A program made the translations under genes and the position numbers. From Acidimicrobiia bacterium (GTDB lineage Bacteria; Actinomycetota; Acidimicrobiia; Spongiisociales; Spongiisociaceae): a stretch of DNA of 64,000 nucleotides. The DNA lies in assembly GCA_041576165.1 (NCBI GenBank), contig JBFGLM010000002.1:32001-96000 (forward strand). The letters run 5' to 3'. The notes below the pieces were generated by a model. That model searched no databases and was not told the DNA's origin. It worked only from the letters and a program-made list of their open reading frames with translations. Numbering within the stretch: the first letter of the stretch is position 1; the number at the start of each line of letters is the position of its first letter. This document shows, in pieces, positions 1,199-64,000 of the stretch.

Positions 1199-1241
1199 GC
1201 GTTTCTCCCGCGTCGCGTTCGGGCAGCCCTCGCTCTGGTGA

Positions 1242-1266
1242 AACGCAAGATCGGTTTCAACATTCC
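1242..1266 (-). promoter_or_regulatory. Possible ECF (SigH/SigE-type) promoter for the disulfide oxidoreductase
   Basis: Minus strand GGAAT-N17-GTT; spacer one base shorter than the SigR/SigH consensus. Confidence 0.3.
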
Positions 1267-1285
1267 CGACGGCCCCGTAAGCCGA

Positions 1286-1314
1286 GCCGATCGCCACCTG
1301 GTGATTCGATCGGC
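1286..1314. terminator. Stem-loop immediately after the stop of the 1315-2040 gene
   Basis: GCCGATCG (1286-1293) pairs with CGATCGGC (1307-1314); no U-tract. Confidence 0.4.
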
Positions 1315-2040
1315 CTAGTCCGCATCGTTCAGCGGCCGTCCAAGCAAGGCGTCGATGCGCTCCAATGTCTCGGTGACCTCGAACGTGGCCGGCTTGACCC
1401 GTTCCAGCCGATCGCGCGAACGCACGAGTTGCTCGGCCACGTCACCGCTGAACTCGATGGACATCAACCCCTCCGCTCCACTGAGCGCTGCGTTGAACAG
1501 CGGGATCCGGACCTCGGCGAGGATCTGATCTACGACGTGCGCGGCTGCAAACTGGTCCCAGTCGGAACCGAACCTGATTTGCACGTCATGCAACGAACGG
1601 TCGATGTTGCCGCTCGTCAGGGCAAGATCGAACAGCAACGCCACATCCGATGCCGAGTATGGCAGGGGGACCTTTGACCCGTATTCGATGATCCGCTCAG
1701 CGGCGAAATGGCGCCGGTAGGAGGGAGGCGCCAACAACCAGACCTGGGTGCGACGATCCTTGAGCGGAAACTTGCGAAGGATGCCAGCCGACGCGACCAC
1801 CGCAGACGCAACCAAATCGGGGTGCAATGCCTGCAGCACCGACCCCCCGCGGAGGCGTTCGAGCGGCTCGCCGAGCAAGATGGTGGGGTCGTCACCGTCC
1901 TCTTCGAACGCTACGAACAGTCGTTCGACCCGATTGGTGTGAAACTTCAACGCGGCGCGGCGATCCCCCTTGAGAAATCTCCAACCGACCAGGTCTCGCC
2001 AGTTCATCAGCCTCTTCCGGGCGCCGCGGACGTCCGGCAC
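1315..2040 (-). CDS. Hypothetical protein (start may be ATG 2007)
   Basis: 241-aa ORF with globular-like composition, filling the gap downstream of hisIE on the same strand; no recognised motif. Confidence 0.6.
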   Translation of the reverse strand: MPDVRGARKRLMNWRDLVGWRFLKGDRRAALKFHTNRVERLFVAFEEDGDDPTILLGEPLERLRGGSVLQALHPDLVASAVVASAGILRKFPLKDRRTQVWLLAPPSYRRHFAAERIIEYGSKVPLPYSASDVALLFDLALTSGNIDRSLHDVQIRFGSDWDQFAAAHVVDQILAEVRIPLFNAALSGAEGLMSIEFSGDVAEQLVRSRDRLERVKPATFEVTETLERIDALLGRPLNDAD

Positions 2041-2091
2041 CGCAGATTAGGCCAGCGGCGGAGGTCGGGTGACGGGCGGTTGCCGCCGAAA

Positions 2092-2715
2092 TCACCCCGC
2101 CCTCCCCGCCAGCACGCGCAGCGCCCCTGCCGGCGTCGAACCCCGCTCGCCGATCAGCACGAGCAGGTGGTAGATCAAATCGGCTGCCTCCTCGTCAACC
2201 CGCCGCGTGGGTTCCGCCCGCCGGGCGTGCCCGATCGCAGCCGCGACAACTTCGGCGGCTTCCTCGAGGACCTTGCGTCCGGCGCCGTCGGCGCCCGACT
2301 CCAGCAGCGACGTGGTGTAGGAACCGGCTGGGCGATTCGCAACCCGGTCGGCAATGGTGATCCACAAACGTTCGAGTGTCGCGAATCCGACCGGCTCCGG
2401 CGAGTCGGCATGTGGCTCTTCAAAGCAGGTGCGGGTGCCCGTGTGGCAGGTCGCTCCGACCGGCCTTGCCTCGATCAGCAGTGCGTCACCGTCGCAGTCG
2501 AACCGCATATCGTGCAGTCGGAGCGTGTTACCGCTGGTCTCGCCCTTCCGCCACAGTGCATTGCGGGATCGACTCCAGAAATGGACGAATCCTGTTGAGC
2601 GGGTCGCGTCGATGGCGGCTTGGTTGAGATACCCGAGCATCAGCACTTCCCGGGTGTCGGCGTGCTGGACGATCCCGGCGATCAGACCCGCCTCATCGAA
2701 CGTAGCCTCCCTCAC
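2092..2715 (-). CDS. hisIE: Bifunctional phosphoribosyl-AMP cyclohydrolase / phosphoribosyl-ATP pyrophosphatase
   Basis: [30 protein letters not shown]; C-terminal [26 protein letters not shown]. Confidence 0.95.
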
Positions 2716-7198: not shown

Positions 7199-7238
7199 CT
7201 AGTGTTTTAACATGCTAAAACATTGAAACACTACGGTA
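7199..7238. promoter_or_regulatory. Palindromic operator in the divergent hisR/hisA promoter region
   Basis: TGTTTTAACATGCTAAAACA (7203-7222) is a near-perfect palindrome in an AT-rich patch; TAGTGTTT (7200-7207) also pairs with AAACACTA (7226-7233). Confidence 0.7.
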
Positions 7239-7274
7239 CAGTACGGTCTGCGCATTCTCAAACCGGGGCGGACA

Positions 7275-7988
7275 ATGGATGTGATTCCAGCCGTCGACAT
7301 TCTGAGTGGCTCCGTCGTGCGACTGATGCAAGGCGACTACGAGCAGGTGACCGAGTACGGAAGCTCACCGGTCGATGCCGCCCGGCGGTGGCTCGATGCC
7401 GGGGCGCAACTGGTCCACATTGTTGATCTGCACGGGGCCCGAGACGGCACCGCCGACGTCGACACTTGGCGCTCGCTTGGACGAGCCGGCATCCCGTTCC
7501 AGCTCGGTGGCGGTATCCGCACCCTCGACACCGTTCGGGCGGCGATCGGAGCAGGTGCGCGGAGGGTCATTCTGGGTACCGCCGCCGTCTGGCAGCCCGA
7601 TCTGCTGGGACGCGCGATCGACGAAGCCGGCACCGGATCCATCGTGGCGTCGATCGACGTGCGGGACGGGCGGGCGACCGGTGCCGGCTGGCTCGACGAG
7701 GGCCGGGTCACTGAGGACGTGGTCGCCGGCACCTTCGCGGTAGGCGTGCGCCAGTATTTGGTGACCGCTGTGGCCCGCGACGGGACCATGCGCGGCCCGG
7801 ACCTCGAGCTGATCTCCCGTGTGATCGAGCTCACGGAGGGGGCGTACGTCATGTGTGCGGGCGGTATCGGCACTCTCGGTGACGTGGCCCGAGTCCGGGA
7901 GCTTGGGGCCGGCGGGGTAGTGGTCGGCCGCGCGCTGTATGAGGGAGCCTTCTCATTGAGCGAAGCCGCCCGGGTCGCTGAAGGGTGA
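7275..7988 (+). CDS. hisA: HisA isomerase (ProFAR isomerase), divergent from the other his genes
   Basis: VIPAVDILSGSVVRLMQGDY, HIVDLHGA, QLGGGIR, ARDGTMRGPD, VVGRALYEG. Confidence 0.93.
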   Translation: MDVIPAVDILSGSVVRLMQGDYEQVTEYGSSPVDAARRWLDAGAQLVHIVDLHGARDGTADVDTWRSLGRAGIPFQLGGGIRTLDTVRAAIGAGARRVILGTAAVWQPDLLGRAIDEAGTGSIVASIDVRDGRATGAGWLDEGRVTEDVVAGTFAVGVRQYLVTAVARDGTMRGPDLELISRVIELTEGAYVMCAGGIGTLGDVARVRELGAGGVVVGRALYEGAFSLSEAARVAEG

Positions 7989-8009
7989 GCCGGCCCGGCG
8001 CAGCCTGTA

Positions 8010-8318
8010 TCAGGGAACCGTGCAGATCGGATCTGTCGAGTCGGGCGGGCACAACGGACCGCCGCCGGAGCCGCCGCCGCCGGAGCCGCCGCCGCCGGAC
8101 CCGCCGCCGGAACTCCCGCCACCCGATCCGTTCTGGTTGAAAGAGGCCGGCACCTGATCCCACAGATCGCCGGTGTTATTGCCGAAGTAGGCAACCGCCG
8201 CGATGGCCACCACCGCGATCAAGAGGACCGCAAGGGCGGTCTCGAGCAGATTTGCGCCGAAGTCGCTCCCCAGATCGAGCGCGCGCCGCATGGGGCCCCG
8301 CTCGCTTTCCGTGGTCAT
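8010..8318 (-). CDS. Flp/Tad-type pilin-like protein with Gly/Ser linker and Cys-pair tail
   Basis: Prepilin-like G|ANLLE followed by a hydrophobic helix (TALAVLLIAVVAIAAVAYFG), then GGGGS repeats and CPPDSTDPIC. Confidence 0.7.
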   Translation of the reverse strand: MTTESERGPMRRALDLGSDFGANLLETALAVLLIAVVAIAAVAYFGNNTGDLWDQVPASFNQNGSGGGSSGGGSGGGGSGGGGSGGGPLCPPDSTDPICTVP

Positions 8319-8419
8319 ATGCAGCCCCTTGTAATTCCCAGCTATCACAAGTATACGCAAGTTGCGGCAGAGAATGGGCACTCACAGTGGTGGCGGCGCA
8401 GCAAAGCCGGCCACGCCGG

Positions 8420-10423
8420 TCAGCTCCGGGTTGATCGGAACCGCTCGAGCGCCTTGTCCAGCTCCGCCCAGCCGACGGTCCGTCGATCCGACCCGGATCG
8501 CAGGACCTCCAGGGCGGCCTCGCGCAGGAGTCCGGTGAGGTCCGCAAACGACAGGCCCTCGGTCTTCTCGGCCAGCTCGTCCAAGTCGACTTCGTCGCCG
8601 AAGGGCACATCAGAGATGTTGAGTAATGCCCGCCGGCCCGGGGTCTTGGGAAGACCGAGATGGATGTGTACTTCGAACCGCCCCGATCGGATGAGAGCCG
8701 GGTCGATGAGGTCTCGCCGGTTGGTCGCGCCGATGACCACGACGTCACCCCGACCCCCGATCCCGTCGAGTTCGGTGAGCAGGGCGGCGACGACCGAGTC
8801 CGTCACCGAGGTGGTGGAGGAGCCGCGCACCGGCGCGAGCGCGTCGAGCTCGTCGAAAAAGATAATCGACGGCGCGGCGGCGCGGGAGCGGGAAAAGACG
8901 TCCCGGACGCCGCGCTCGGACTCGCCAACGTATTTGTCCAACAGCTCGGCCCCCTTGACCGCAAAAAAAGCCGCGCCGCTTTCGTGGGCCAGCGCCCGGA
9001 TGACGAACGTCTTGCCAGTGCCCGGCGGTCCGTAGAGCAGGATGCCCCGGGGTGGCTCGATCCCCATTTCCGCGAACCGTTCGGGCTGGGTCATCGGCCA
9101 GATCACTGCTTCGGTGAGGCGTTGTTTCTCCTCTTCGAGGTTGGCGACTTTGTCGAAGCCATAACTCGGCATCTCTCCGAGAGGTACAGAGCCCAGCGAT
9201 GGCGACGTGTCTTCCACTGCGGCCAGGAGCCCTTCCTGGGTCACCGGTTCGCCCGAGCGGGCCACCATGGCGGATGCATGGACGATCGCCGCCATGATGT
9301 CCGAGCCGGAGAACCCGGCTGAGCGCGCCGCCAACTGATCGTGGTCTATGTCCGCCGTCGGGACGTGGCGCAATCCTTCCTCGAACATCAAGCGGCGGCG
9401 AGTGAGGTCGGGCGGCGGCACGGTCAAGGTCCGGGGGAGCAGGGGAGACCGGGCGATCGAGTCGTCCAGATGCGACACCGCCGCAACGCCGAGCACACAT
9501 GCCAGGCCCTTGGTTTCGGCCACAGCGTCGGTGAACCATCGCAGGATGGCTCCGACCTGGCTCTTGAACGCGACCATGCCTTCTTCGCCGGTGACTGCTT
9601 CCAGCCGGTCGACGTAGATGACTCCGGGCCTCGCGGTCGTGTTCTTGGCCTTCTCGAGCAGATCCAGCAGCCTCTCCGGCTTGAACACCAGATCCAGAGA
9701 CACTTCGTGGAACGCGGCTCCCGCCTCGTCGGCCGCTGTGCGAACCAGTTCGGTCTTGCCGACCCCCGACGGACCCTCGAGGATCACGCCGGCCACCTCC
9801 GGCAGGCCCCAGCTCTTTGGCAGGTCCTGAGGCGAGGTGAGTAGCGCCAGCCATCCGGTCAGGATCTCCAGCTCGGCTTCCAGACCGGTGAGAAGGGCAG
9901 CCATCGGCCGAGGGAGATCCGAGGGGGCTTCGACTGCGCCCGGCCGGGCGCCGTCGACCAGCGCCCGTGCATGGTCTGCGGCCGACAGGACGAGCGAGCC
10001 GTGGTTGATCAGGCCCGCATCGCCGGGCTCAATATCGGCGATGCGCATGTCGATCGGATCTGCGCCTCCCAGATAACGCGCATCGATCGTGATCGTGTCG
10101 CCGGTGGTGGCCGGACGCCCCTGGAGCGCTTGGATCAGCACCCGCGGTTCCACCGGCAAGGTTTCGCCTTCGATCACGACCCGCCCGGCGGTGGACAGCA
10201 ACGCCCGGTTCGCCTCGACCGATGCGCCCACCTGAATGCCCGCATTGGCGAGGGCCTGGGGGCCGAGGCTCAGCGCCGACGCTTCACCACCCCGCCGGGG
10301 TCGAACGAGCACATGGGTCTTACCCACCGAGATGACACCGCCGGCCGGCATACCCATCGCCGCCAGCATCGCCCGATCGGCGCCTGCCACCGGGTCTGTG
10401 CCCGCGCGTACGATGAACCGCAT
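8420..10423 (-). CDS. Cdc48/VCP-like double AAA+ ATPase (Cpa-like)
   Basis: N-domain plus D1 (GPSGVGKT) and D2 (GPPGTGKT, IIFFDELD, ATNRRDLIDPALIRSGRFE); TAGCAT -10 box 7 nt before ATG 10423. Confidence 0.88.
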   Translation of the reverse strand: MRFIVRAGTDPVAGADRAMLAAMGMPAGGVISVGKTHVLVRPRRGGEASALSLGPQALANAGIQVGASVEANRALLSTAGRVVIEGETLPVEPRVLIQALQGRPATTGDTITIDARYLGGADPIDMRIADIEPGDAGLINHGSLVLSAADHARALVDGARPGAVEAPSDLPRPMAALLTGLEAELEILTGWLALLTSPQDLPKSWGLPEVAGVILEGPSGVGKTELVRTAADEAGAAFHEVSLDLVFKPERLLDLLEKAKNTTARPGVIYVDRLEAVTGEEGMVAFKSQVGAILRWFTDAVAETKGLACVLGVAAVSHLDDSIARSPLLPRTLTVPPPDLTRRRLMFEEGLRHVPTADIDHDQLAARSAGFSGSDIMAAIVHASAMVARSGEPVTQEGLLAAVEDTSPSLGSVPLGEMPSYGFDKVANLEEEKQRLTEAVIWPMTQPERFAEMGIEPPRGILLYGPPGTGKTFVIRALAHESGAAFFAVKGAELLDKYVGESERGVRDVFSRSRAAAPSIIFFDELDALAPVRGSSTTSVTDSVVAALLTELDGIGGRGDVVVIGATNRRDLIDPALIRSGRFEVHIHLGLPKTPGRRALLNISDVPFGDEVDLDELAEKTEGLSFADLTGLLREAALEVLRSGSDRRTVGWAELDKALERFRSTRS

Positions 10424-52988: not shown

Positions 52989-54050
52989 ATGCCATTTCCC
53001 GACGGCACTGCAGATTTCAGATCGGATACCGTGACCCGGCCGACGCCGGCGATGATCGAGGCGATGGCTCGCGCCGATGTGGGCGACGACGTGTACGGGG
53101 AAGATCCCACCGTCAACCGGCTCCAGGAGGAGTCGGCGGAGGTGCTGGGGAAGGAAGCTGCACTCTTCACGCCGACCGGTTCGATGGGCAACCAGCTGGC
53201 GATCAGCCTCCAAACGTCGCCCGGCGACGAGGTGCTCTGTGTCGATCGAGCCCATGTCCGCAATTATGAGATGGGTGCAGGTGCCGCCATGTCGGGTGTG
53301 CAATTCCGCCCGGTGCCGACACCGGACGGCCGGATCACCCCGACCGACGTCGACGCGGCGCTCGAATCGGCGAGCTACCGGCTCCCGCGGATCAGCCTCA
53401 TGGCCTGGGAGAACACCCACATGGTCTCGGGCGGGACAGTCGTCCCGCTCGATTTGATGCGTGAGACGAGTGCGCGAGTACACGATGCCGGTGTGGCTGT
53501 ACACCTGGACGGGGCTCGCGTATTCAACGCCGCCGCAGCCAGCGGCACGGACCCTGTCGACTACGGCGCGCTGGTCGACACCGTGCAGTTCTGCTTCTCG
53601 AAGGGCCTCGGTGCGCCCATAGGATCCATCCTGTGTGGTCCTGCCGATTTGATCTCCGAGGCGAGGACCATGCGGAAGCGCTTCGGGGGCGGGATGCGGC
53701 AAGTTGGGGTGATCGCGGCGGCCGCCCGGGTGGCACTAGCCCGACGCGACGAGCTGGCGGACGACCACACGACGGCCCGGCACCTCGCGGAGGGGATCGA
53801 GTCCCGCTTTCCCGGCTCCATCAAACTCGACGAGGTCCAGACCAACATCGTCATCGCCGACTCTTCACACCTGCCGGTGACCGGGACCCAGTTGATGACA
53901 GCGCTGGCCGACCAGGGCGTGCTGGTCGGTGCGGTCGGTTCAGCCACGCTTCGCTTCGTGACACACCACCAGGTGGACGCCGACGACGTGGATCGTGTAC
54001 TGCGGGTCCTGGACGAGCTGTCGGCGGATGCTCGATCCGTGTCCGCCTGA
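52989..54050 (+). CDS. ltaE: Low-specificity L-threonine aldolase
   Basis: [43 protein letters not shown]. Confidence 0.93.
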
Positions 54051-54088
54051 CGGTAACGGTCGGTGGTGACGCGAGGTCTCACGTAGCG

Positions 54089-55027
54089 ATGCCGTTTGCG
54101 ATTCTGTTCCCGGGGCAAGGCACTCAAGAGGTCGGGATGGGCGCCGAGCTGTTCGACGCCCGCCCCGATGTCCTGATCGAAACCGCTGATGAGGTGTTGG
54201 GCTGGTCTCTGCGAAGCACCTGCCTGGAGGGACCGCTGGGACTCCTCACCGCCACAGACCGGGCCCAGCCGGCCATCTACGCGCTCTCCTACGTTCTGTG
54301 GGAAGAGCTGGCGAGCCGCCTGGCAGCAGCGCCAACCGCGGCAGCGGGTCATAGCTTGGGCGAGTACACGGCGTTGGCCGCAGCCGGAAGTTTTGGGTTT
54401 GAGGATGGGTTGCGGCTGGTCAGCGCGCGGGGTCGGGCGATGGCCGCCGCGGCCGCCCAGGAGCGTTCCGGTATGGCCGCTTTGATCGGCGTGGACGTCG
54501 ATGGTGCCGAGACAGTCTGCCGGGCCCGGCGGGACGACGGAGGCAAGTTGTGGGTGGCCAACATCAATGCTCCCGGACAGGTGGTCGTGGCCGGGGGTGC
54601 CGAGGATCTGGAATGGCTGGCCGACCATGCCCGGGAGTTCGGCGTGCGGCGGGCCATTCCGTTGAATGTGGCAGGAGCGTTCCATTCACCGTTCATGCAA
54701 CCGGCCGTAGCCGCATTGGATTCGGTGTTGCGTGACCTGGAATTCGGCGCTCCGGCCTTCGACGTGTGGGCGAACGCGACCGCTGCTCCCTTGACGGGCG
54801 GGGAGATTGCCGCCCGGCTGACCGAGCAGGTGGTGTCGCCCGTTCGGTTCGCGGACGGGCTGGTGGGTATGGCTGCGACGGGTATTGACTGTTTCGTGCA
54901 CGTCGGACCCGGGGACGTCACCGCCGGCATGGCGAAGCGAACGGTGGGAGGGGCCACGGTCCTCACCGCCAACTCACTGGGGGCTCTGGACGAGGTCGCA
55001 GGCCTCGCCGTGGCCTCCGTACAATGA
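54089..55027 (+). CDS. fabD: Malonyl-CoA:ACP transacylase
   Basis: FPGQG, AQPA, GHSLGE, AGAFHS. Confidence 0.95.
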   Translation: MPFAILFPGQGTQEVGMGAELFDARPDVLIETADEVLGWSLRSTCLEGPLGLLTATDRAQPAIYALSYVLWEELASRLAAAPTAAAGHSLGEYTALAAAGSFGFEDGLRLVSARGRAMAAAAAQERSGMAALIGVDVDGAETVCRARRDDGGKLWVANINAPGQVVVAGGAEDLEWLADHAREFGVRRAIPLNVAGAFHSPFMQPAVAALDSVLRDLEFGAPAFDVWANATAAPLTGGEIAARLTEQVVSPVRFADGLVGMAATGIDCFVHVGPGDVTAGMAKRTVGGATVLTANSLGALDEVAGLAVASVQ

Positions 55028-55055
55028 CCCGTCTCACCAGCAGCAGGAGGTTGTG

Positions 55056-56156
55056 ATGCGGCAGGCGGAGATCGTCGGTTGGGGCAAAGCCCTCCCGCCG
55101 AGCGTATTGACGAATCACGATCTCGAGAAGATCGTCGAAACCAGTGACGAGTGGATCACCACCCGGACCGGTATCAAGGAGCGCCGCATCTCCCATGTCG
55201 AGGCGAGCGATCTGGCAACGGTGGCGGCTCGGCGAGCCCTGGCCGCAGCCGATATGGACGCCGCCGACATCGGGCTCGTCATCAACGCCACGTGCACTCC
55301 TCGCTCCCTGGTGCCGGCGAGCGCTGCGTACGTCCAGCGCGATATCGGGGCCGTCAACGCCGGGGCCATGGACATGAATGCGGCGTGCAGCGGATGGATC
55401 TACGCATTCGTCGCCGCCTCCAGCATGGTCCAGTCCGGAGCCATCGACTCGGCCTTGGTGATCGGGGTCGAGAAGCTCAGCTACATCATGGATTTCACCG
55501 ACCGTACGACCTGTGTGCTGTTCGGCGACGGAGCCGGGGCAGTCGTGCTGCGGGCGTCGGACGACCCGGTGGGTTTGCTGGCCTCCGAGTTGGGAAACGA
55601 CGGTGAGGCAATCCAGCTCCTCGAGGTGCCGGTCGACGGAGCGGAAGGCTCGCCGGGACCACGCGACCCGCGAACCAGCTCGATCTCGATGCAGGGGCCC
55701 GAAGTGTTCCGACGGGCCGTCACGATGATGGGGGAGGCGTCGGAAGCGGTCGTGGAGCGCGCCGGATGGGGCGTCGGCGACGTCGATTTGTTGGTCCCGC
55801 ATCAAGCGAACCAGCGGATAATCGACGCCACCGCCCGCCGGCTCAAACTCGACGCTTCCAAGGTGTTCCTCAACATCCACGCCTACGGCAACACCTCGTC
55901 TGCCACGATCCCCATCGCGTTGACCGAAGCGCTCGAGCAGGGTCAGGTGCCACCGGCGGCGAACCTCGTGTTCGCCGCCTTCGGGGGAGGTCTCAGCTGG
56001 GCGGCTGCGGCCGTCAAGTGGGGCTCCCGCATCGAGCCGCTGCGAGAGAGCGACGCCACAGTGTCCCCTACCGACACGACGGTGATGGAACTGCTGCAAC
56101 CTTCTTTCGATTTCTTCGGGCCTGCCTCGCTGGCATCGGAGGGCCAGGGTTCGTGA
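55056..56156 (+). CDS. fabH: 3-oxoacyl-ACP synthase III
   Basis: WITTRTGIKER, NAACSG, PHQAN, YGNTSSA; AGGAGG RBS. Confidence 0.96.
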   Translation: MRQAEIVGWGKALPPSVLTNHDLEKIVETSDEWITTRTGIKERRISHVEASDLATVAARRALAAADMDAADIGLVINATCTPRSLVPASAAYVQRDIGAVNAGAMDMNAACSGWIYAFVAASSMVQSGAIDSALVIGVEKLSYIMDFTDRTTCVLFGDGAGAVVLRASDDPVGLLASELGNDGEAIQLLEVPVDGAEGSPGPRDPRTSSISMQGPEVFRRAVTMMGEASEAVVERAGWGVGDVDLLVPHQANQRIIDATARRLKLDASKVFLNIHAYGNTSSATIPIALTEALEQGQVPPAANLVFAAFGGGLSWAAAAVKWGSRIEPLRESDATVSPTDTTVMELLQPSFDFFGPASLASEGQGS

Positions 56157-56887
56157 GCCATGTCGCCCTCGTCACCGGCGGATCTCGCGGCATCGGGCGG
56201 GCGATCGCCCTCGAACTGGCCTCACAGGGGGCGTCGATTGCGGTCAACTATGCGCAACGGTCGGATGCAGCTGAGGAAGTGGTGAAGACCATCAACTCGA
56301 ATGGGGGAACGGCGGTCGCCGTCGGCGGCGACATGAGCCAGCCGGACACGGCCTCGGCAATGGTCAGCGAGGTCGCTGACGAGTTGGGCCCGGTCGACAT
56401 TCTGGTCAACAACGCAGGGATCACCCGCGACGACCTGCTGCTGCGGTTGGACATCGACCAGTGGGATGAGGTCATCAACGTGAATCTGCGGTCGGCCTTC
56501 CTGGCGTCCAAGGCCGCGCTGCGGGGGATGCTCAGGGCAAAATGGGGCCGGATCATTTCGATCAGCTCGGTGGCGGGCCTGGCCGGCAACCCGGGTCAGA
56601 CCAACTACGCCGCTTCCAAGGCTGGCTTGATCGGGTTTTCGAAGTCGCTGGCCAAGGAAGTTGGATCGCGGGGCATCACCGTCAATGTCGTGGCGCCGGG
56701 CTTCATAGAAACAGAAATGACTGAGGCGCTTGGCGAAGCTGCGGCCGGAGCGGCAGCGGCTGCGACGAGTCTCGGGCGCCTGGGCACGCCGGCTGAGGTC
56801 GCCTCGGCCGTCGGCTATCTTGCCTCCGAACAAGCGTCCTACATCACCGGCCAGGTGCTCGTAGTAGACGGAGGACTGGCCCTGTGA
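56153..56887 (+). CDS. fabG: 3-oxoacyl-ACP reductase
   Basis: TGGSRGIG, NNAGITRD, GQTNYAASKAG, APGFI. Confidence 0.96.
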   Translation: MSHVALVTGGSRGIGRAIALELASQGASIAVNYAQRSDAAEEVVKTINSNGGTAVAVGGDMSQPDTASAMVSEVADELGPVDILVNNAGITRDDLLLRLDIDQWDEVINVNLRSAFLASKAALRGMLRAKWGRIISISSVAGLAGNPGQTNYAASKAGLIGFSKSLAKEVGSRGITVNVVAPGFIETEMTEALGEAAAGAAAAATSLGRLGTPAEVASAVGYLASEQASYITGQVLVVDGGLAL

Positions 56888-56918
56888 GAGGGTCGGATCG
56901 AGAAGGGATGGGCAAACC

Positions 56919-57164
56919 ATGGATCGTGCGGAAATCGAATCGAAGCTGAAGGATCTGCTGGTGAGCGAGCTCGGCCTCGAAGCCGACAAGATCACCGGCG
57001 ACGCCAGCTTCGAAGAGGACCTCGAAGTCGATTCGCTCGGCGTGGTCGAGCTGCTCATGGCCATGGAAGACGAATTCGGTGTGAAGATCCCGGACGAAGA
57101 AGCTGAGGAGATCGGCACCGTGGGCCAGGCCGTCGACCTGGTGCAAGCCAAGCTGGCCGGCTGA
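56919..57164 (+). CDS. acpP: Acyl carrier protein
   Basis: DLEVDSLGVVEL (phosphopantetheine Ser), EDEFG. Confidence 0.96.
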   Translation: MDRAEIESKLKDLLVSELGLEADKITGDASFEEDLEVDSLGVVELLMAMEDEFGVKIPDEEAEEIGTVGQAVDLVQAKLAG

Positions 57165-57181
57165 ACAAGAGGAGCTCTGAC

Positions 57182-58432
57182 ATGAGCGGCAGCCGACGAC
57201 GGGTCGTGGTCACCGGCATGGGTGCGGTGACACCCATCGGCCATTCGGTCGACTCGTTTTGGAAGTCGGCGACAGCCGGAGTTTCGGGCGTTGGTCCGAT
57301 CACGCTGTTCGACCCGGCCCGGATCGAGACCAAGATCGCAGCCGAAGTGAAGGGTTTCGACCCAGAGGTCTACATGCCACGGCGCGAGTCGCGGCGGCTC
57401 GACCGGTTTGCCCAACTGTTCATCGCCGCCGCGCAGCAGGCCATGGACGATTCCGGACTGGATTTCACCGATGATGACGAAGCGGGCGCCCGCGCCGGCA
57501 TTGTGCTGGGTGCAGGCATCGGCGGGATGTTGTCCTTCGTCGACCAGCACAACGTACTCAGAGAACGCGGACCCGACAGAGTCAGCCCCTTGGCCATCAC
57601 CATGATCATCCCCAACGAGGGGGCTGGGGTGGCTTCGATCAGATTCAACATGTTGGGCCCGGTGTCGTGTGTCGTGACTGCGTGTGCGGCCTCCGCCAAC
57701 GCTATTGGGGACGCCGCGGAAATGATCAGGCGGGGCACAGCGGATGTCATGCTGGCAGGCGGAGCGGAGGCGACGATCTGCGAATTCGGGGTCGGTTCGT
57801 TCAATCAGAGCAAGGCACTCAGCACCCGCAACGACGACCCCACGGGCGCCTCCCGCCCCTTCGACCGGGACCGCGATGGGTTTGTCATGGGCGAGGGCGC
57901 AGCGGCGCTGGTGCTGGAAGAACGTGAGCAGGCCATGCAACGAAACGCCACGATCCACGCCGAACTGCTGGGCTACGGCATGAGTTCGGACGCCTACCAC
58001 GTCACGCTGCCTCGCCCCGGCGGGGAAGGCGCAGCGCGAGCCATGACCAATGCGCTGGACGATGCTCAACTCAATCCCGCCGACGTTGACTACATAAACG
58101 CGCACGGCACCTCGACGCCGGCCAACGATTCGACCGAGACCGCCGCCATCAAACAGGCCATGGGCGATACCTCCCACACGACCCCGGTGTCGTCGACCAA
58201 ATCGATGACCGGGCACCTGCTCGGCGGCGCCGGAGCGGCGGAGTCGATCATGTGTATCCAGGCCATCAAGGAGGGGGTGCTGCCCCCGACGATCAATCTC
58301 GAGACGCCCGATCCCGAATGCGACCTCGACTACGTGCCGAACGAGGCTCGTGAGGCCCGGGTTGTGAATGCCATGACGAATTCGTTCGGCTTCGGGGGCC
58401 ACAACGTTGCGCTGATCTACGGAGCCGCCTAG
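57182..58432 (+). CDS. fabF: 3-oxoacyl-ACP synthase II
   Basis: VVVTGMG, TACAAS, NAHGTST, KSMTGHLLG, NSFGFGGHN. Confidence 0.97.
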   Translation: MSGSRRRVVVTGMGAVTPIGHSVDSFWKSATAGVSGVGPITLFDPARIETKIAAEVKGFDPEVYMPRRESRRLDRFAQLFIAAAQQAMDDSGLDFTDDDEAGARAGIVLGAGIGGMLSFVDQHNVLRERGPDRVSPLAITMIIPNEGAGVASIRFNMLGPVSCVVTACAASANAIGDAAEMIRRGTADVMLAGGAEATICEFGVGSFNQSKALSTRNDDPTGASRPFDRDRDGFVMGEGAAALVLEEREQAMQRNATIHAELLGYGMSSDAYHVTLPRPGGEGAARAMTNALDDAQLNPADVDYINAHGTSTPANDSTETAAIKQAMGDTSHTTPVSSTKSMTGHLLGGAGAAESIMCIQAIKEGVLPPTINLETPDPECDLDYVPNEAREARVVNAMTNSFGFGGHNVALIYGAA

Positions 58433-58488: not shown

Positions 58489-58761
58489 CTACGCATCATC
58501 ACCTGATGGCTCATCCGATGCCGGTGGGGGCGGGCCGGCCCCGCTGGTTTCTCGCCATTCGGCGAAGGAGCGTACGGCCAGGATGACGACGACAGCCACT
58601 CCGCCGCCGCACACCAGCGCGCCGACGATCGTTACCGCGATCGCGGTGCCGTAACATGTGTCGGGCTGACAGCTGATGGATGTCACGATCCACCCGATCA
58701 GCCCGCCCACCACCAAAGCCGCCAGCACCGGCCACAGAACCCACGGGTTTATGCGGCTCAC
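58489..58761 (-). CDS. Small two-TM membrane protein
   Basis: Two TM helices flanking CQPDTC. Confidence 0.65.
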   Translation of the reverse strand: MSRINPWVLWPVLAALVVGGLIGWIVTSISCQPDTCYGTAIAVTIVGALVCGGGVAVVVILAVRSFAEWRETSGAGPPPPASDEPSGDDA

Positions 58762-58764
58762 GCC

Positions 58765-59553
58765 TCAGTCCTTCTTCTTGGGCCGGCCTTTCGGGTCAAA
58801 CCCGGCCGCCCCGAGTACGTCGGGCGGAACCATCTCCGGCAGGATTGGCACGGGTGAAACCCGCTGGGGCGCGAGCGGGTTGGCGGCGGCCAGTGCTGGT
58901 TTGCTCCATGCCAGCACTGTCACGACTGCGGCGAATACGCCTAGGCCGGCGGCGGCCCACAATTCCAGCCCGATGACGGCCCAAGCTGCCAGCACCGGCC
59001 AGCCCAGCCGTATCGCCCACAGCGCGCGGACGAGCGCCCGCATGTACGCCCAGCCCAGAATCACCCCGGCCGCGGCCAGCACCCACCCTCCGGTGGTCAC
59101 GCCCGCATAGCCGAGAGCGCCCACCACCGCCGGGGAACCGGCCAGCGTTAGTGCCAGCGTGGTGGCAGATGCCGGCACCCGGTCGGGGCGGCTGACAGCC
59201 GCCATGGCCTCCAGCGCCCGACGGCGCCACAGCATCGCAGTGGCGAGCGTCGCGGCGGCTACAGCGATCCACCATCCAGGGGTGATATCCAGCGCGACGG
59301 CGACGCTCAATTCGAACGCGAGCAGGACCGTCACACTGATCGCTACCCATCGGCCCGGCGACAGCAGCGCGGCCACCGCAAGCACGGCGTTGAGTAGAAC
59401 AACGCCGGACGCGAGCAGCGCCGCCGCCGCTTCCGGCCACGGCGTCGGAGCGAAGGTGAGTCGAGCCACCCAGGCAATCGCCGCGATCACCAACACGGCG
59501 GCAGCCCGCACCAGGGCGGTGCTGGCGTGACGTTCGGGGGTCGGGGCGGTCAT
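58765..59553 (-). CDS. Multi-pass membrane protein
   Basis: About eight hydrophobic segments; C-terminal PILPEMVPPDVLGAAGFDPKGR. Confidence 0.75.
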   Translation of the reverse strand: MTAPTPERHASTALVRAAAVLVIAAIAWVARLTFAPTPWPEAAAALLASGVVLLNAVLAVAALLSPGRWVAISVTVLLAFELSVAVALDITPGWWIAVAAATLATAMLWRRRALEAMAAVSRPDRVPASATTLALTLAGSPAVVGALGYAGVTTGGWVLAAAGVILGWAYMRALVRALWAIRLGWPVLAAWAVIGLELWAAAGLGVFAAVVTVLAWSKPALAAANPLAPQRVSPVPILPEMVPPDVLGAAGFDPKGRPKKKD

Positions 59554-59623: not shown

Positions 59624-60154
59624 ATGTCGACCACACGCGGCTCTTGGCCCGGCGACCCGATCTATTGCTCTCAATGCGGGACTCGGTTGGAAGATCAACC
59701 CATGCACAACGGAGACCTGCGCCCGACATGTCCCCGCTGCGGATACATCGCGTTTCGGAGCCCGTCCGTGGGTGTTGCGGTGCTGGTGCGTGATGCATCG
59801 GGTCGGGTGTTGATGGTGAAGCGGGCCGAGGGTGCCACCCGGCCCGGCCTGTGGTCGATCCCGGCGGGTTACATGGACTACGGCGAAGAGGTCAGAGAGG
59901 CCGCCGCCCGAGAGCTGGAGGAAGAAACCGGGCTCGAGGCCGACGTCGGGGAGGTCGTGTTCGTAGCGTCGAATTTCCACGATCCGGCAAAGCTCACCGT
60001 GGGCATTTGGTTCGAGGGGAACGTGGTTGGAGGCAATCTGGAGGCCGGAGACGATGCGGCAGAGGTGGGATGGTTTTCCCTCGACGAGCTGCCGCCGCTC
60101 GCGTTCGAAACGGATGAGGCGCTGTTCGAACAACTGCGCTCCGGGGTCTGGTGA
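59624..60154 (+). CDS. NUDIX hydrolase with N-terminal zinc ribbon
   Basis: YCSQCG...CPRCG; Nudix box GYMDYGEEVREAAARELEEETG. Confidence 0.93.
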   Translation: MSTTRGSWPGDPIYCSQCGTRLEDQPMHNGDLRPTCPRCGYIAFRSPSVGVAVLVRDASGRVLMVKRAEGATRPGLWSIPAGYMDYGEEVREAAARELEEETGLEADVGEVVFVASNFHDPAKLTVGIWFEGNVVGGNLEAGDDAAEVGWFSLDELPPLAFETDEALFEQLRSGVW

Positions 60155-60241: not shown

Positions 60242-60331
60242 GTGAGACCAGGGCACGCCAGCAGATGCACGTCCCGGCGCACCGCCTGGAGCCGGCTGGA
60301 CTCCGGCCATATACCGGACGTGGTGCGATGA
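60242..60331 (+). CDS. 29-aa upstream ORF coupled to the CHAT gene
   Basis: GGAGGAGAGG (60229-60238) precedes GTG 60242; product MRPGHASRCTSRRTAWSRLDSGHIPDVVR; TGA overlaps ATG 60328 (ATGA). Confidence 0.45.
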   Translation: MRPGHASRCTSRRTAWSRLDSGHIPDVVR

Positions 60332-62850
60332 CGGTGCGACCGGCTGAGATCCGGCCACTCGGCGTCCACGAACTCGAGCCGCTCCTCGACCTGGTTGCGG
60401 GCTCCGACCCCGCCGTGCGCCGGAGAGCGCTTGACGTCCTCACCGTCTTTCCTCTGACCGACGCCGCGTGGCGGCACGTGGCGCGAATCGTCCTGGTTGC
60501 GATCGAGCTGGATCCCCATGCAGAAACGCTGGTCGCGGCGGCCCAGGTTCCAGTCCGCGAGGTGCGGGAGCAGTTGCACGCTCAGCTCGGGCTGGCACCA
60601 CCCGAGCAACGCACCGCGCTCGCCCAAGCACTGGTGGCGGCCGGCGACGCCGCGGCCGCGCCGGTGCTGGTGCGCCGGCTCGCAGTGGCGGAGCCCGGCC
60701 GGGCAATGGCCGCCGCCGAGGCGCTTGGGCAGATAGCGCCCGCCGTGCCGACCGGATTGGCGCGGGAGATCTTCGAACAGTCGAAGTCGGACGACGTCCG
60801 CTTGTGGTTGGCAGTCCATCTGGCCAGGGGAGGCGACATCCGACCGCTCCAACAGTTGATCGACGAAGCGGCCGCGGGCAGCTTCCGTCCGGCGCACTAC
60901 CACGGCGATTCGACAGCATGGGCCGCCCGGATAGAGCCGAACCCGCCGATGCCCCGAGTTGTCATCGACCTCACGACCGGCCACGGCGCTGGGGGCAACA
61001 TCGTGGTCGACCTGCTGACGGCGCTGGAGAGTCGGGCGGCACCGGGTGCGGCGAGTGAGCAAGGACACCTGGCCGGGGTCGCGCGCACGGCACTAGACCA
61101 CGCAGCCAATGATCCCACGCAGGCACTTGAGAGCCTCGAGGCGGCGGTCGCGGAGCACGGGATCAAACCTCCCGCCCGGCCCCATTTGGAGAACTCGACC
61201 GTCGACTTGATAGCGCTCGAAGAGGAGGTGTTGGTCGAGACAGCCCCGCTGGATGATCTGGGCCTCGAGAGCCTGGGACCGGTTCGGTCGGCCATGGAGG
61301 CTTCGCCGCCGGATGCCGCGGCGGCATCCGGAACCGACCACGTATATGCCCTCCTCAAATGTCCGGGCACGGTTGCGGCTGAACAGGAATTCGAGCTTGC
61401 GGTCGGCCTGAGTCCCGCTCAGTCCGAAGGTGTCGTCGGCGGGCCGCTGGAGGGTCTCGAGGGCCGAGCCAAACCGTACGTCATCTCCGTCCAGGTGGTA
61501 GCCGACGGGTTTGAGCTGCGGGAAGGCGAGCGCTGGCGCCACGACCTAGCGGTGACCGACGCTCAGCCCTTCCCAACCACGCTATTGCATCTGCGGGCCG
61601 TCCCCACCGACGCGGCGGTGCGGGCGGCCGCCATCTCTGCGACATTCACCGTCGACGGTCAAATGGTTGGCATGGCTGTGCGGCCGGTGGCCATAACGGC
61701 TCCCGGGGTGACCGCCCCGGAGGAGAGCGGACCTCAGGAGGTCGTCGGGGCCGATCTGGCCATCCCTACCGGGCCGGTACCGGCGGATCTCACGGTGGCT
61801 TTCCACCAGGCCCGCGAGCTCCATCTGCTCAGGATGACGATCGAGTCGCCACACGACACGGTGAGAATCCCCGAAATCGACGTCGAGGTGAGCATCGGTG
61901 CCGACCCGGACGAGTACGCCCGTGAACTGGTGCGCGACATGGATGGGCTAGAGGGGAGTGCCGGCTTGCGGCGCGAGCTGGAGGGACGGGGCCGGATGCT
62001 GAGTCAATCGCTGCCCGAGGAGTTCTGGGCAGCACTGCGGGAGGCTGCAGAGGCCGCCGGCGGGCGGCCGTCTGTGCTGCTGGTGTCGGCCGAGGGACGT
62101 ATCCCCTGGGAGTTGGCACTGGTCGATCCGCCACTCGATCCCGACCAGCCGCCGTTTTTGTCGACCCAGGCCGTCATCGGGCGGTGGGTCCTGGCCGGCG
62201 GCGTGCCGCTTCCGCCGCCCCACGAGCGTCCATTCGGTTCGATGGCCGTGATCACCGGCGACTACACCGATCTTCCTCGCTGGGATTCGCTGGCGGCGGC
62301 CGACAATGAACGGGATGAGCTACACGGCCGCTACCAGGCGGAGCCGGTCGACGCCAAGTATGAGCCGGTGATCGAGCTCCTGGAGCGAAAGCCCGCCCCG
62401 ACTGTGTTGCATCTGGCCGTGCACGGCAAGTACACCCAGGGTTCCGGGCGAGAGGGAATTGTTCTCACCGACGGGGAGTGGCTCACGCCCAACGTCGTGA
62501 TGGCCCAGGAAATCGAGGGCGAGCCGCTGGTATTCCTCAACGCTTGCCAGGTCGGTTCGTCGGACGCCGTGCTCAACCAGTACGCCGGGCTGGCTCCGGC
62601 ATTCCTGCGAGCGCGCGCGTGTGGGGTCATTGCGCCGATGTGGAGCGTCAAGGACGAGATTGCTCGCAACATGGCGCTCGGCTTCTACACGGCGACGCTT
62701 GAAGAAGGAGTTTCGGTGGGCGAAGCCATCCGGCGCGCACGATCGGCATTTGCTGCGGGCGGCGAGCCGACTTCTGCGACATTCATGGCGTATCAGTACT
62801 TCGGCCATCCGGAACTCCGGCTGGCCCCGTCGGACCCAGGAGGTGGATGA
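60328..62850 (+). CDS. HEAT-repeat / beta-sandwich / CHAT (caspase-like, clan CD) protease
   Basis: N-terminal DPAVRRRALDVL and AAAEALGQI helical repeats; C-terminal IPWELA, VLHLAVHG (His), VFLNACQVG (Cys), IAPMWSVKD, YQYFGHP. Confidence 0.88.
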   Translation: MTVRPAEIRPLGVHELEPLLDLVAGSDPAVRRRALDVLTVFPLTDAAWRHVARIVLVAIELDPHAETLVAAAQVPVREVREQLHAQLGLAPPEQRTALAQALVAAGDAAAAPVLVRRLAVAEPGRAMAAAEALGQIAPAVPTGLAREIFEQSKSDDVRLWLAVHLARGGDIRPLQQLIDEAAAGSFRPAHYHGDSTAWAARIEPNPPMPRVVIDLTTGHGAGGNIVVDLLTALESRAAPGAASEQGHLAGVARTALDHAANDPTQALESLEAAVAEHGIKPPARPHLENSTVDLIALEEEVLVETAPLDDLGLESLGPVRSAMEASPPDAAAASGTDHVYALLKCPGTVAAEQEFELAVGLSPAQSEGVVGGPLEGLEGRAKPYVISVQVVADGFELREGERWRHDLAVTDAQPFPTTLLHLRAVPTDAAVRAAAISATFTVDGQMVGMAVRPVAITAPGVTAPEESGPQEVVGADLAIPTGPVPADLTVAFHQARELHLLRMTIESPHDTVRIPEIDVEVSIGADPDEYARELVRDMDGLEGSAGLRRELEGRGRMLSQSLPEEFWAALREAAEAAGGRPSVLLVSAEGRIPWELALVDPPLDPDQPPFLSTQAVIGRWVLAGGVPLPPPHERPFGSMAVITGDYTDLPRWDSLAAADNERDELHGRYQAEPVDAKYEPVIELLERKPAPTVLHLAVHGKYTQGSGREGIVLTDGEWLTPNVVMAQEIEGEPLVFLNACQVGSSDAVLNQYAGLAPAFLRARACGVIAPMWSVKDEIARNMALGFYTATLEEGVSVGEAIRRARSAFAAGGEPTSATFMAYQYFGHPELRLAPSDPGGG

Positions 62851-64000
62851 TGGACTACGACCTCGATCCCTACGGCGATCCGGTCGCCGTCGATGACGTC
62901 GTGCTGCGTACCCCCGGCCTGGCCGGACGCGTACGGACGATCACCGCCTCCGGGCAGGCCATGCGTTCGGAGGCCCAATGGACGTCGGCTCTGTCCGAGG
63001 CGCTGGCCAACGAGAACGTCGAGCCCCAGGTCGTCGTTGAGATATCCGACACAGAGGAGACCGACGTTCCGGCGGGCGTAGGCACCCGTTCGACCGCAAT
63101 CGGGGAGCCGGGAATCGAACTCGAGGTGCCCGGGCCCGGCACCGGGTGGGGTCAGCTGATCCTGTACACCGACGAATCGGGAGTTGCCACCTGGGAGTTC
63201 GCAGAGAACGGAGACAGCCAGGAGGCGGCTACGCGCGGTGCAAATACTCAGACGTACGTGCTCCGGCGTTCCGTGCCGCCGCCGGCAGCCCCTGAAGCCG
63301 GCGCTAGTCGCGGGGTGCTCTCGTCCATCGGTAGGAAGGTCTTGGGCGTCTTGGCTTTCAAGCTGATTGATCCAGTAATAGGCGCGATCGGAGAGGCCTT
63401 TGCCGAGCGGTGGGAGGCGAAGAAGCGGCCATATCGCATCCGGTCGTTTGCTCCCGATTCGTACCGAGAGTCCGACGGCCCGCTGATCGATTCGACCGGA
63501 TGGAACCGTCTTGGTGAGGGCAAGTCACTGCTGTTCGTGCACGGCACGTTCTCCCGTGCCCATACGGGCTTCAGCGGGCTTTCACCCCACGTGATGAAGG
63601 ACCTGCACCGCATCTACGAGGGTCGGATCTTCGCGTTCGACCACTTCACCCTTTCCCACACTCCCCAGCAGAACATCGAATGGTTGCTCGGCCAGCTACC
63701 CGATGGCGTCAGCCTCGACCTGGACATCGTCTGCCATTCCCGGGGCGGTTTGGTGAGCCGGACACTGGCCGAGAAACAGGGTGAACTGTCGACCGGAGGC
63801 CGCACCGTCAACGTCGACAAACTGGTATTCGTCGCCACTCCCAACTCCGGGACGGCGCTGGTCGACACCGAGCACATGTCTCAGTTCATCGATACGTATA
63901 CAAACTTGTTCAACTTCGTGCCCGACAACGGGGTCACCGAAGTCCTGGAGGGCGTCATCACCGTGGCGAAACACATCGCCGTAGGCGCAGTCAAAGGTCT
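62847..64000 (+). CDS. Alpha/beta-hydrolase (lipase/esterase-like) with long N-terminal extension; 3' end runs off the window
   Basis: Not in ORF track (no stop). Open from ATG 62847 (ATGA overlap, AGGAGG RBS): LLFVHGTFS, FAFDHFTLS, DIVCHSRGGLVSR (nucleophile Ser codon 63738), VATPNSGT. Confidence 0.88.
   Translation, partial: MMDYDLDPYGDPVAVDDVVLRTPGLAGRVRTITASGQAMRSEAQWTSALSEALANENVEPQVVVEISDTEETDVPAGVGTRSTAIGEPGIELEVPGPGTGWGQLILYTDESGVATWEFAENGDSQEAATRGANTQTYVLRRSVPPPAAPEAGASRGVLSSIGRKVLGVLAFKLIDPVIGAIGEAFAERWEAKKRPYRIRSFAPDSYRESDGPLIDSTGWNRLGEGKSLLFVHGTFSRAHTGFSGLSPHVMKDLHRIYEGRIFAFDHFTLSHTPQQNIEWLLGQLPDGVSLDLDIVCHSRGGLVSRTLAEKQGELSTGGRTVNVDKLVFVATPNSGTALVDTEHMSQFIDTYTNLFNFVPDNGVTEVLEGVITVAKHIAVGAVKG

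Follow-up and report, generated by a model that had tools for sequence, protein, structure and literature searches.

In bacterial gasdermin systems, the killer protein, encoded beside a caspase-like or CHAT protease, is autoinhibited until that protease frees it. Proteases of the caspase superfamily have also been linked to alpha/beta-hydrolases. According to a 2020 study of VMAP ternary systems, wherever a caspase-superfamily domain occurs in them an alpha/beta-hydrolase gene 'always' lies beside it, a related hydrolase is also placed in GAP1-N1 systems, and caspase and hydrolase are said to 'operate together' (Kaur et al., eLife 2020, PMC7159879). According to a 2025 preprint, a Lysobacter caspase-like protease (LcCaspase) cuts its neighbouring alpha/beta-hydrolase (LcHydrolase) at two R↓G sites, Arg73 and Arg117, and both in vitro work and toxicity assays showed that this activates the hydrolase zymogen; the preprint identifies no substrate for LcHydrolase and reports that caspase-like proteases lacking an effector partner can provide defence on their own (Evans et al., bioRxiv 2025, PMC12642450). 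Here, we analyzed two overlapping genes, encoding a CHAT protease and an alpha/beta-hydrolase of the DUF7379 family, at the end of a 64,000-nucleotide stretch from an Acidimicrobiia bacterium (GCA_041576165.1, contig JBFGLM010000002.1; G000:C2:32001-96000, hereafter the window), whose continuation past the window end was read in a 20-kb region (L002). The pair is best explained as a protease-effector module of two genes, similar in kind to those that serve bacteria in conflicts and in defence against phages. As judged from sequence comparison, it is probable, at a moderate level of confidence, that the sensor-bearing CHAT protease switches on the adjacent hydrolase, made as a zymogen. The two genes and the parts of their products, given in amino acids (aa) and for the protease taken from an AlphaFold2 (AF2) model with its predicted local distance difference test (pLDDT) score, are as follows.

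60328..62850, plus strand: CHAT protease gene, an open reading frame (ORF) of 840 aa if it starts at the ATG at 60328 (or of 861 aa from a second possible ATG at 60265)
Protease aa 13-182: HEAT-like helical solenoid of 11 helices (AF2 model)
Protease aa 198-326: disordered, low-confidence linker (AF2 model)
Protease aa ~337-461: macroglobulin/Ig-like beta-sandwich, with further strands to 522 (AF2 model; all-beta domain at 340-522, pLDDT >90)
Protease, between the beta domain and the CHAT fold: short helical/pseudo-protease part (AF2 model)
Protease aa 582-834: alpha/beta CHAT fold (AF2 model), its active caspase fold with His699 and Cys740 placed at ~635-837
62847..64000, plus strand: hydrolase gene, cut by the window end, with 384 aa within the window
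G000:C2:94847-96337 = L002:4847-6337, plus strand: full hydrolase gene, 496 aa
Hydrolase aa 1 to ~222: beta-rich conserved N-domain
Hydrolase aa ~225-496: DUF7379 alpha/beta-hydrolase domain

By profile, conserved dyad and caspase-hemoglobinase fold, the window protease is a CHAT, clan CD caspase-fold cysteine protease. Its CHAT domain matched PF12770 with 54.8 bits against a cut-off of 24 (residues 675-811; Pfam), and the catalytic motifs HLAVHG (695-700) and FLNACQ (736-741) supply H699 and C740, which were invariant both in 24 and in 105 aligned homologues. The AF2 model, built from 105 homologues, has a mean pLDDT of 78.6 and exceeds 90 over most of residues 340-840. The closest fold matches were Csx29 (Z 24.0; 313 aa aligned, root-mean-square deviation 3.8) and the protease domain of separase (Z 23.9), followed by gingipain R (Z 19.3), SAVED-CHAT (Z 15.7) and metacaspases (Z 11), and Foldseek agreed. 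Residues 337-461 gave moderate scores with C3 (Z 9.7) and bacterial alpha-2-macroglobulin (Z 9.4). The conserved protease core spans aa ~340-840 across homologues, and the slot before it holds HEAT_2, Pkinase, TCAD7, RRM, Peptidase_S8 or CSD domains in different members, and also SEFIR+TIR, Trypsin_2 or Peptidase_C14; a part exchanged so freely is what one would expect of a sensor or adaptor slot. TCAD7 had been raised at the outset as a possible identity of the middle domain but was rejected there: the window protease had no Pfam match to it at E up to 0.1, the fold is macroglobulin/Ig-like, and TCAD7 sits at the protease N-terminus in four other loci (L024, L073, L084 and L085; Pfam). No CRISPR effector or SAVED domain was found by Pfam on the window protease.

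The hydrolase start at 62847 overlaps the CHAT stop by 4 nucleotides (nt; ATGA). The encoded protein is a DUF7379 alpha/beta-hydrolase according to its profile, its fold and its nucleophile-acid-His residues. It matched PF24096 with 192.1 bits against a cut-off of 33 (residues 228-402, full profile length 1-191), besides faint Pfam matches to palmitoyl-protein thioesterase and PGAP1-like families, and contains the motifs HGTFS (232-236, with HG 232-233 as the oxyanion motif), CHSRGG (296-301) and TPNSGT (331-336). The HG pair, Ser298 (in CHSRGG), Asp443 (in NDLVVP) and His476 were invariant in 115 aligned sequences and in 69/69 loci; the last three form a putative triad, assigned from motif position and not from coordinates. 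A word-indexed homologue search returned 650 matches at E up to 0.001, and the best 120 of them, from Chloroflexota, Acidobacteriota, Gemmatimonadota, Actinomycetota, Bacillota and Krumholzibacteria, were nearly all 486-514 aa long and 47-77% identical to the query over the full length, with identity of ~50% across phyla. Since these homologues are near-uniform in length and alike from end to end, the ~220-aa N-domain belongs to the family no less than DUF7379 itself. An ESM Atlas search with the N-domain (1-222) was uninformative (best scores 0.79 and 0.78).

The AF2 model of the hydrolase is confident (pLDDT 92.3, predicted TM-score (pTM) 0.92), except for a loop at 122-131 (<50) and the region around 151-160 (~68). 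Foldseek ranked bacterial family I lipases first (E about 1e-9), and an aligner independent of Foldseek (VIA) ranked PlaB, a Legionella phospholipase, first (Z 18.2), followed by a Streptomyces lipase (17.8), BlEst2 (17.0), palmitoyl-protein thioesterases (15.3-15.7) and the type VI secretion system (T6SS) lipase Tle4 (15.2). A membrane-attacking lipase had been proposed from the letters of the window; the fold is indeed closest to phospholipases and lipases, whereas a lipid substrate is a best guess only, which we hold as possible but more doubtful than not. A hydropathy scan (Kyte-Doolittle, 19-aa window, threshold 1.6) gave no hydrophobic segment in the hydrolase, hence no signal-peptide-like stretch, and a single borderline internal Ala-rich helix in the CHAT protease, with no signal peptide evident. 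The first-pass annotation of the window had described the 840-aa protein as helical repeats, linker, beta domain and CHAT domain with an intact His/Cys dyad, had noted the stop-start overlap, the three hydrolase motifs and the lack of a signal peptide on either protein, and had supposed that the operon continues past the window. These points were borne out, the layout by the AF2 model and the Pfam CHAT match, and the continuation by the 496-aa hydrolase and a further gene on the same strand 80 nt beyond it.

To examine the linkage of the two genes, one genome per species (185,579 species) was scanned with patterns derived from an alignment of 22 hydrolase homologues. The scan yielded 477 matched stretches, 465 of which encode a hydrolase relative, and the best 80 loci were kept with flanks of at most 10 kb and classified by tblastn, simple gene calls and Pfam. 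The upstream partners in these best 80 of 465 loci were as follows.

33 loci: same-strand CHAT gene immediately upstream, with homology to window residues ~340-832
36 loci: Peptidase_C14 caspase upstream
6 loci: <250 nt of upstream sequence
5 loci (L037, L041, L047, L067 and L078): neither protease upstream

Leaving aside the six loci with <250 nt upstream, a caspase-fold protease lies directly upstream of, or is fused to, the hydrolase in 69 of the 74 informative genome loci. The same holds in a metagenome scan, in which a 4-sequence alignment as query found seven loci, all with CHAT upstream (7/7); an earlier metagenome scan with a single hydrolase protein as query found no loci. Co-location in other genomes, on which the first-pass annotation had staked its proposal, was therefore upheld in both samples. 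Among the C14 loci, 34/36 have the caspase fused in frame to the hydrolase and two (L020 and L082) carry it in a separate frame; the fusions, ~1165-1200 aa in total, consist of the caspase, a middle region of ~400 aa and a complete hydrolase homologue. Homology between this middle region and the CHAT middle domain (338-560) was considered and none was detected (hhalign probability 0.1). On a quick maximum-likelihood tree of the hydrolases (67 rows; hydrolases <430 aa left out), partner type changes 5 times, against a shuffled mean of 26.1 and with values as low in 0/200 shuffles; thus, related hydrolases tend to have the same type of partner. The branching does not mirror taxonomy, and the window hydrolase is sister to a Krumholzibacteriota one (SH-aLRT 98). 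The hydrolase was not found in any of the 24 same-family genomes searched, and it was found weakly in 1/16 same-order genomes. The distribution of the hydrolase is patchy, and its pairing with a protease is not due to chance.

Several variants of the unit were also observed. The same genome as the window carries on contig C97 an ORF of 1529 aa or more that runs off the contig (L086:4808-9394, plus strand) and joins a divergent DUF7379 domain, close to the N-terminus, to CHAT at 1155-1441; upstream of it, a 633-aa TIR_2 protein is encoded on the opposite strand (L086:1542-3443, minus strand). In protein clusters P0231-P0236 (~1340-1356 aa, e.g. from Nannocystaceae), PF24063, a PGRP-like Amidase_2, PF24062, CHAT and DUF7379 are joined in one protein, a possible peptidoglycan-sensing version of the protease-hydrolase unit. 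Downstream of the C14-fusion genes there is often a CHAT gene of ~600 aa, a gene for a 1040-1640-aa Peptidase_C14-nSTAND1-WD40 protein, or both, and such extra proteases next to the fusions suggest multi-protease cascades. These downstream genes were seen at L009, L040, L077, L049, L061, L069 and others, the WD40 protein being apoptosome-like, and a Peptidase_C11 gene was also seen at L061 and L081. In addition, a Thermoanaerobaculia pair (L050) is flanked by a Trypsin_2-PLDc_2 gene (7-2706, minus strand) and a patatin-like phospholipase gene (7219-9291, plus strand), both of them effector-like.

The N-domain of the hydrolase contains two Arg-Gly motifs, R130-G131 and R155-G156. Among 69 hydrolases in which residue conservation was counted (33 CHAT-type and 36 C14-type), R155 is present in all 69, with Gly as the next residue in 60 and Ser in 9, and R130 in 65, with Gly or Ser next. 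Both motifs are preceded by Pro/Ala-rich stretches of variable length and fall in low-confidence, flexible loops of the AF2 model. Gingipain R, one of the structural matches of the window protease, is an Arg-specific enzyme. In a further preprint, a Type IV Thoeris caspase-like effector was assayed with a peptide ending in Arg (10.64898/2025.12.03.692087). By analogy with these two enzymes, a preference for Arg at P1 is plausible for the proteases studied here. It should be noted that the motifs were spotted in the hydrolase alignment before the precedent of PMC12642450 was found. That cleavage occurs specifically at the candidate sites R130 and R155 is a tentative assignment, to which we give somewhat less than an even chance.

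From these observations we infer the direction of control, the cleavage sites, toxicity, the type of substrate and a defence role, which may be pictured as follows. The CHAT protease would be held inactive until its N-terminal HEAT-like region registers a trigger, directly or via a partner. Activated CHAT would then cut the co-translated hydrolase, the best candidate sites being after Arg130 and Arg155 in the N-domain loops, which would excise a piece of ~25 residues and free the lipase-like Ser-Asp-His hydrolase from autoinhibition. The freed enzyme would kill or arrest the cell, with a (phospho)lipid or another ester as the best-guess substrate. This functional reading is supported jointly by the conserved adjacency or fusion, the variable N-terminus of the protease, the invariant triad, the R-G motifs and the precedent in PMC12642450. 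The first-pass annotation had cast the HEAT repeats as sensor, CHAT as switch and the hydrolase as zymogen; the comparative evidence and that precedent largely sustain this scheme, though not the novelty that had been attached to it.

A number of findings weigh against protease-to-zymogen control. Five of the 74 informative loci carry the hydrolase without an adjacent protease. The flanks of the 22 CHAT-type loci covered by a neighbour-gene scan hold mostly housekeeping genes or transporters rather than defence islands, and no third gene recurs around these pairs. PADLOC-DB 2.0 gave no match for CHAT or hydrolase at E up to 0.01. The HEAT assignment of the supposed sensor rests on a sub-threshold Pfam match to HEAT_2 (E 0.03), on the HEAT_2 matches of homologues that align to the N-terminus of the window protease (significant in L006 and L066, weaker in L044 with E 0.007), and on low-scoring matches of the N-terminal helices to karyopherin/TOG repeats (Z 9-10, below the tool's meaningful level for helical repeats). 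The fold matches of the hydrolase fall off gradually, from Z 18.2 at rank 1 to 13.7 at rank 50, so 'lipase' is not established. The CHAT protease of Craspase cuts after Leu/Met. Finally, the R-G motifs sit in the extra N-domain, elsewhere than the LcHydrolase sites, and could therefore be structural or ligand-binding.

The surroundings of the pair bear on what else might belong to it. Upstream, as had been noted from the letters of the window, the pair follows core genes:

Window 53633-58432, plus strand: FabD-FabH-FabG-ACP-FabF, a complete fatty-acid synthesis row
Window 58489-58761, minus strand: small ORF, no Pfam family
Window 58765-59553, minus strand: 262-aa ORF, no Pfam family
59624..60154, plus strand: NUDIX hydrolase gene (Pfam NUDIX, 88 bits)

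A homologue of the NUDIX protein was found in 0/80 related loci, and this gene is probably outside the module. Downstream of the hydrolase, in the continuation past the window end, the following genes were identified:

L002:6418-11769 = G000:C2:96418-101769, plus strand: Ig-array/nSTAND1 protein with two presumed transmembrane (TM) segments, 1783 aa
L002:11786-13243, minus strand: SIR2_2 protein, 484 aa (Pfam)
L002:13289-14944, plus strand: Trypsin_2 protein, 551 aa, with a helical N-terminal region of ~340 aa

Farther downstream are a DinB-type (IMS) polymerase gene and then a transglutaminase gene. The nSTAND1 gene is on the same strand as the hydrolase, with a gap of 80 nt. A scan of L002 1500-15500 listed no terminator-like site between these two genes and no promoter-like site in the scanned range, and was otherwise uninformative. 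The 1783-aa protein has two strongly hydrophobic segments (23-56 and 1289-1312), both of which presumably span the membrane, and between them ~1230 residues with DUF11/CARDB and three SdrD_B Ig-like repeats. A Pro-rich linker is followed by an nSTAND1 NTPase domain (PF20703 at 1338-1740; 100.4 bits against a cut-off of 27.1, full profile length), in which a Walker A-like GPAGAGKTS and a Walker B-like VIVIDE were recognized by eye. The N-terminus of the SIR2_2 protein (ILISYRRSD...) is TIR-like by eye, with no Pfam TIR match, and the protein gave weak ThsA matches in PADLOC; the Trypsin_2 protein gave a weak RT-Protease match there. Taken together, the CHAT pair and the nSTAND1, SIR2_2 and Trypsin_2 genes look like a small conflict island. 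A shared adaptor (EAD-like) domain among the five proteins was sought by all-against-all blastp and rejected, nothing better than E 0.07 being obtained. As a separate observation, the gene before the hydrolase in the protease-less locus L047 (L047:3243-9791, plus strand) encodes an SdrD_B/GEVED/DUF11 protein of 2182 aa, which bears an IPTL-CTERM sorting signal and whose repeat families are those of the window's downstream nSTAND1 protein.

The alternative that survives best extends the two-gene reading and does not exclude it. It holds that the nSTAND1 protein senses something outside the cytoplasm, oligomerises and activates CHAT, which then acts on the hydrolase, and that the neighbouring SIR2 and trypsin genes might be further effectors. 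In such an outside-in arrangement, the Ig-like array would face outward and the nSTAND1 NTPase, after the second hydrophobic segment, would be cytoplasmic; a surface event (phage adsorption, competitor contact or envelope damage) would lead to CHAT activation and then to the hydrolase. Between relatives, identity is 29-33% in the ectodomain, against 54-61% in the NTPase and 77% in the hydrolase, which marks the ectodomain as by far the fastest to diverge. Besides the short gap on the same strand with no terminator-like site listed in it, several relatives argue for this view. The closest metagenome locus (L091) keeps the order of a HEAT-CHAT gene (60% identity), a hydrolase (77%), a 99-nt gap and a partial homologue of the TM/Ig-repeat protein (30-32%) running to the contig end. 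Among 183 nSTAND1-region matches, the combination of DUF11/SdrD_B with nSTAND1 occurs in P0239 and P0240 only, and their contigs (12,392 and 16,776 bp) are equal in size to those of the closest hydrolases, P0003 and P0002, from which we infer co-location that was not seen directly. In Nocardioides immobilis (NZ_QXGH01000049.1, L072:3533-11497), a CHAT-SIR2_2 protein (701 aa), an nSTAND1 protein (497 aa), a Peptidase_S8-CHAT protein (1046 aa) and the hydrolase are encoded in one row, the fullest version of the window-type association seen, and C14-type loci often have a C14-nSTAND1-WD40 gene.

However, a STAND gene was nearby in 0/22 scanned CHAT-type loci, hence such a gene is not needed for the pair to work, or at any rate to travel. 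Close relatives may owe their synteny simply to common descent, the co-location of P0239 and P0240 comes from contig sizes, and the five proteins share no adaptor domain detectable by blastp. On balance, a three-component receptor of this kind is possible yet on the unlikely side. We take the two genes as the module; that the STAND receptor is an input specific to this sublineage seems about as unlikely, or slightly more so, and that the protease-hydrolase pair is the output arm of an outside-in STAND receptor in this sublineage is unlikely. If true, it would make the system a membrane-spanning analogue of NLR/apoptosome signalling, with an extracytoplasmic, N-terminal ligand-binding array in place of the usual cytoplasmic, C-terminal WD40 or TPR array of STAND proteins. 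The nSTAND1 neighbour, if coupled to the pair, would indicate how a bacterial STAND protein could read signals outside the cytoplasm.

Control of the hydrolase by the protease has also to be weighed against schemes in which the two proteins exchange roles. The actual effector could be the protease, with many cell proteins as its targets, as in type IV Thoeris or PCaspase, and the hydrolase a cofactor, a sensor or a processing enzyme that makes or removes a signal or activates the protease. Kaur et al. say only that the pair 'operate together' (PMC7159879), and effector-free caspase-like proteases can defend (PMC12642450). Many C14-fusion loci hold further proteases (CHAT, Peptidase_C11 and C14-nSTAND1-WD40), which suggests cascades, and the extreme conservation of the hydrolase would also fit a housekeeping-type cofactor. 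On the other hand, the variable sensor-like domains are carried by the protease and not by the hydrolase, in the one pair of this kind that has been tested the protease acts on the hydrolase, and conserved R-G motifs in flexible loops of the hydrolase fit a substrate. We consider such a reverse or parallel wiring improbable. An ordinary metabolic or regulatory pair with no conflict role, e.g. for the proteolytic maturation of a lipid- or ester-metabolising enzyme, would agree with the many CHAT-type loci among housekeeping genes and with the lack of a PADLOC model match for either protein, but is very unlikely in view of the patchy distribution that does not follow taxonomy, the swappable N-terminal domains of the protease, the repeated proximity of the module to STAND, SIR2, TIR, trypsin, patatin and PLD genes, and the toxicity of the homologous logic reported in PMC12642450.

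Sensor-gated activation of a hydrolase zymogen thus being the preferred reading, the pair can be set beside the systems described so far. NCBIfam offered no useful name for the CHAT protease or the hydrolase, and our literature search found no mention of DUF7379 and no experimental work on a CHAT + DUF7379 pair. The first-pass annotation had gone further and knew of no characterised system with this architecture, which does not hold: the pairing was described computationally in 2020 (PMC7159879) and the zymogen was shown in 2025 (PMC12642450).

Like VMAP (MoxR-vWA) and GAP1-N1 systems, the family shows a nearly obligatory pairing of a caspase-superfamily protease with an alpha/beta-hydrolase, and some CHAT partners of the DUF7379 hydrolase carry TCAD7, a domain named from those systems. 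Unlike VMAP systems, most CHAT-type pairs stand alone as two genes, and among the large ORFs of the 20-kb L002 region no MoxR AAA, vWA, VMAP or GAP1 gene was found by Pfam. With Craspase Csx29, SAVED-CHAT and separase, the window protease shares a helical repeat joined to a CHAT fold, a His-Cys dyad and a dedicated protein substrate, the last of these being predicted here. It differs from Craspase (Cas7-11 with Csx29 TPR-CHAT cleaving Csx30) in having a HEAT-like rather than a TPR N-terminus, and from both Craspase and SAVED-CHAT in its partner, a hydrolase instead of Csx30 or PCaspase. In contrast to bacterial gasdermin systems, the neighbour is a DUF7379 alpha/beta-hydrolase enzyme and not a pore-forming gasdermin.

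It is becoming apparent that effectors gated by proteases are a general principle of immunity in prokaryotes, in parallel to eukaryotic caspase-driven cell death. The present hydrolase family occurs in 465 places in ~185,000 species genomes and, in the best 80 loci, is linked almost without exception, by adjacency and fusion, to caspase-fold proteases of two different families. As a second, highly conserved hydrolase family with a confident model (pLDDT 92), it provides another route to the substrate of protease-activated alpha/beta-hydrolases, and it offers clear handles: two candidate R↓G sites, a putative Ser-Asp-His triad and swappable sensor domains.

The closest comparison is with LcCaspase-LcHydrolase. 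In both cases a caspase-fold cysteine protease stands beside a lipase-like alpha/beta-hydrolase with a Ser nucleophile and two conserved Arg-Gly motifs, which are cut in LcHydrolase and are candidate sites in the window hydrolase, and the sensors attached to the proteases are diverse, with STAND and WD40 among them. The window protease differs from LcCaspase in being of CHAT type, 840 aa long and equipped with HEAT-like and beta-sandwich domains, and the window hydrolase (496 aa) differs from LcHydrolase (~296 aa) by an extra N-domain of ~220 aa that holds the R-G motifs. As compared by eye, R73 and R117 of LcHydrolase are part of the hydrolase fold and fall after the HG strand but ahead of the AHSLG nucleophile, whereas the motifs of the window hydrolase come before the HG strand. 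We judge the CHAT + DUF7379 pair to be a variant of the recently described kind of protease-gated hydrolase, not a new kind.

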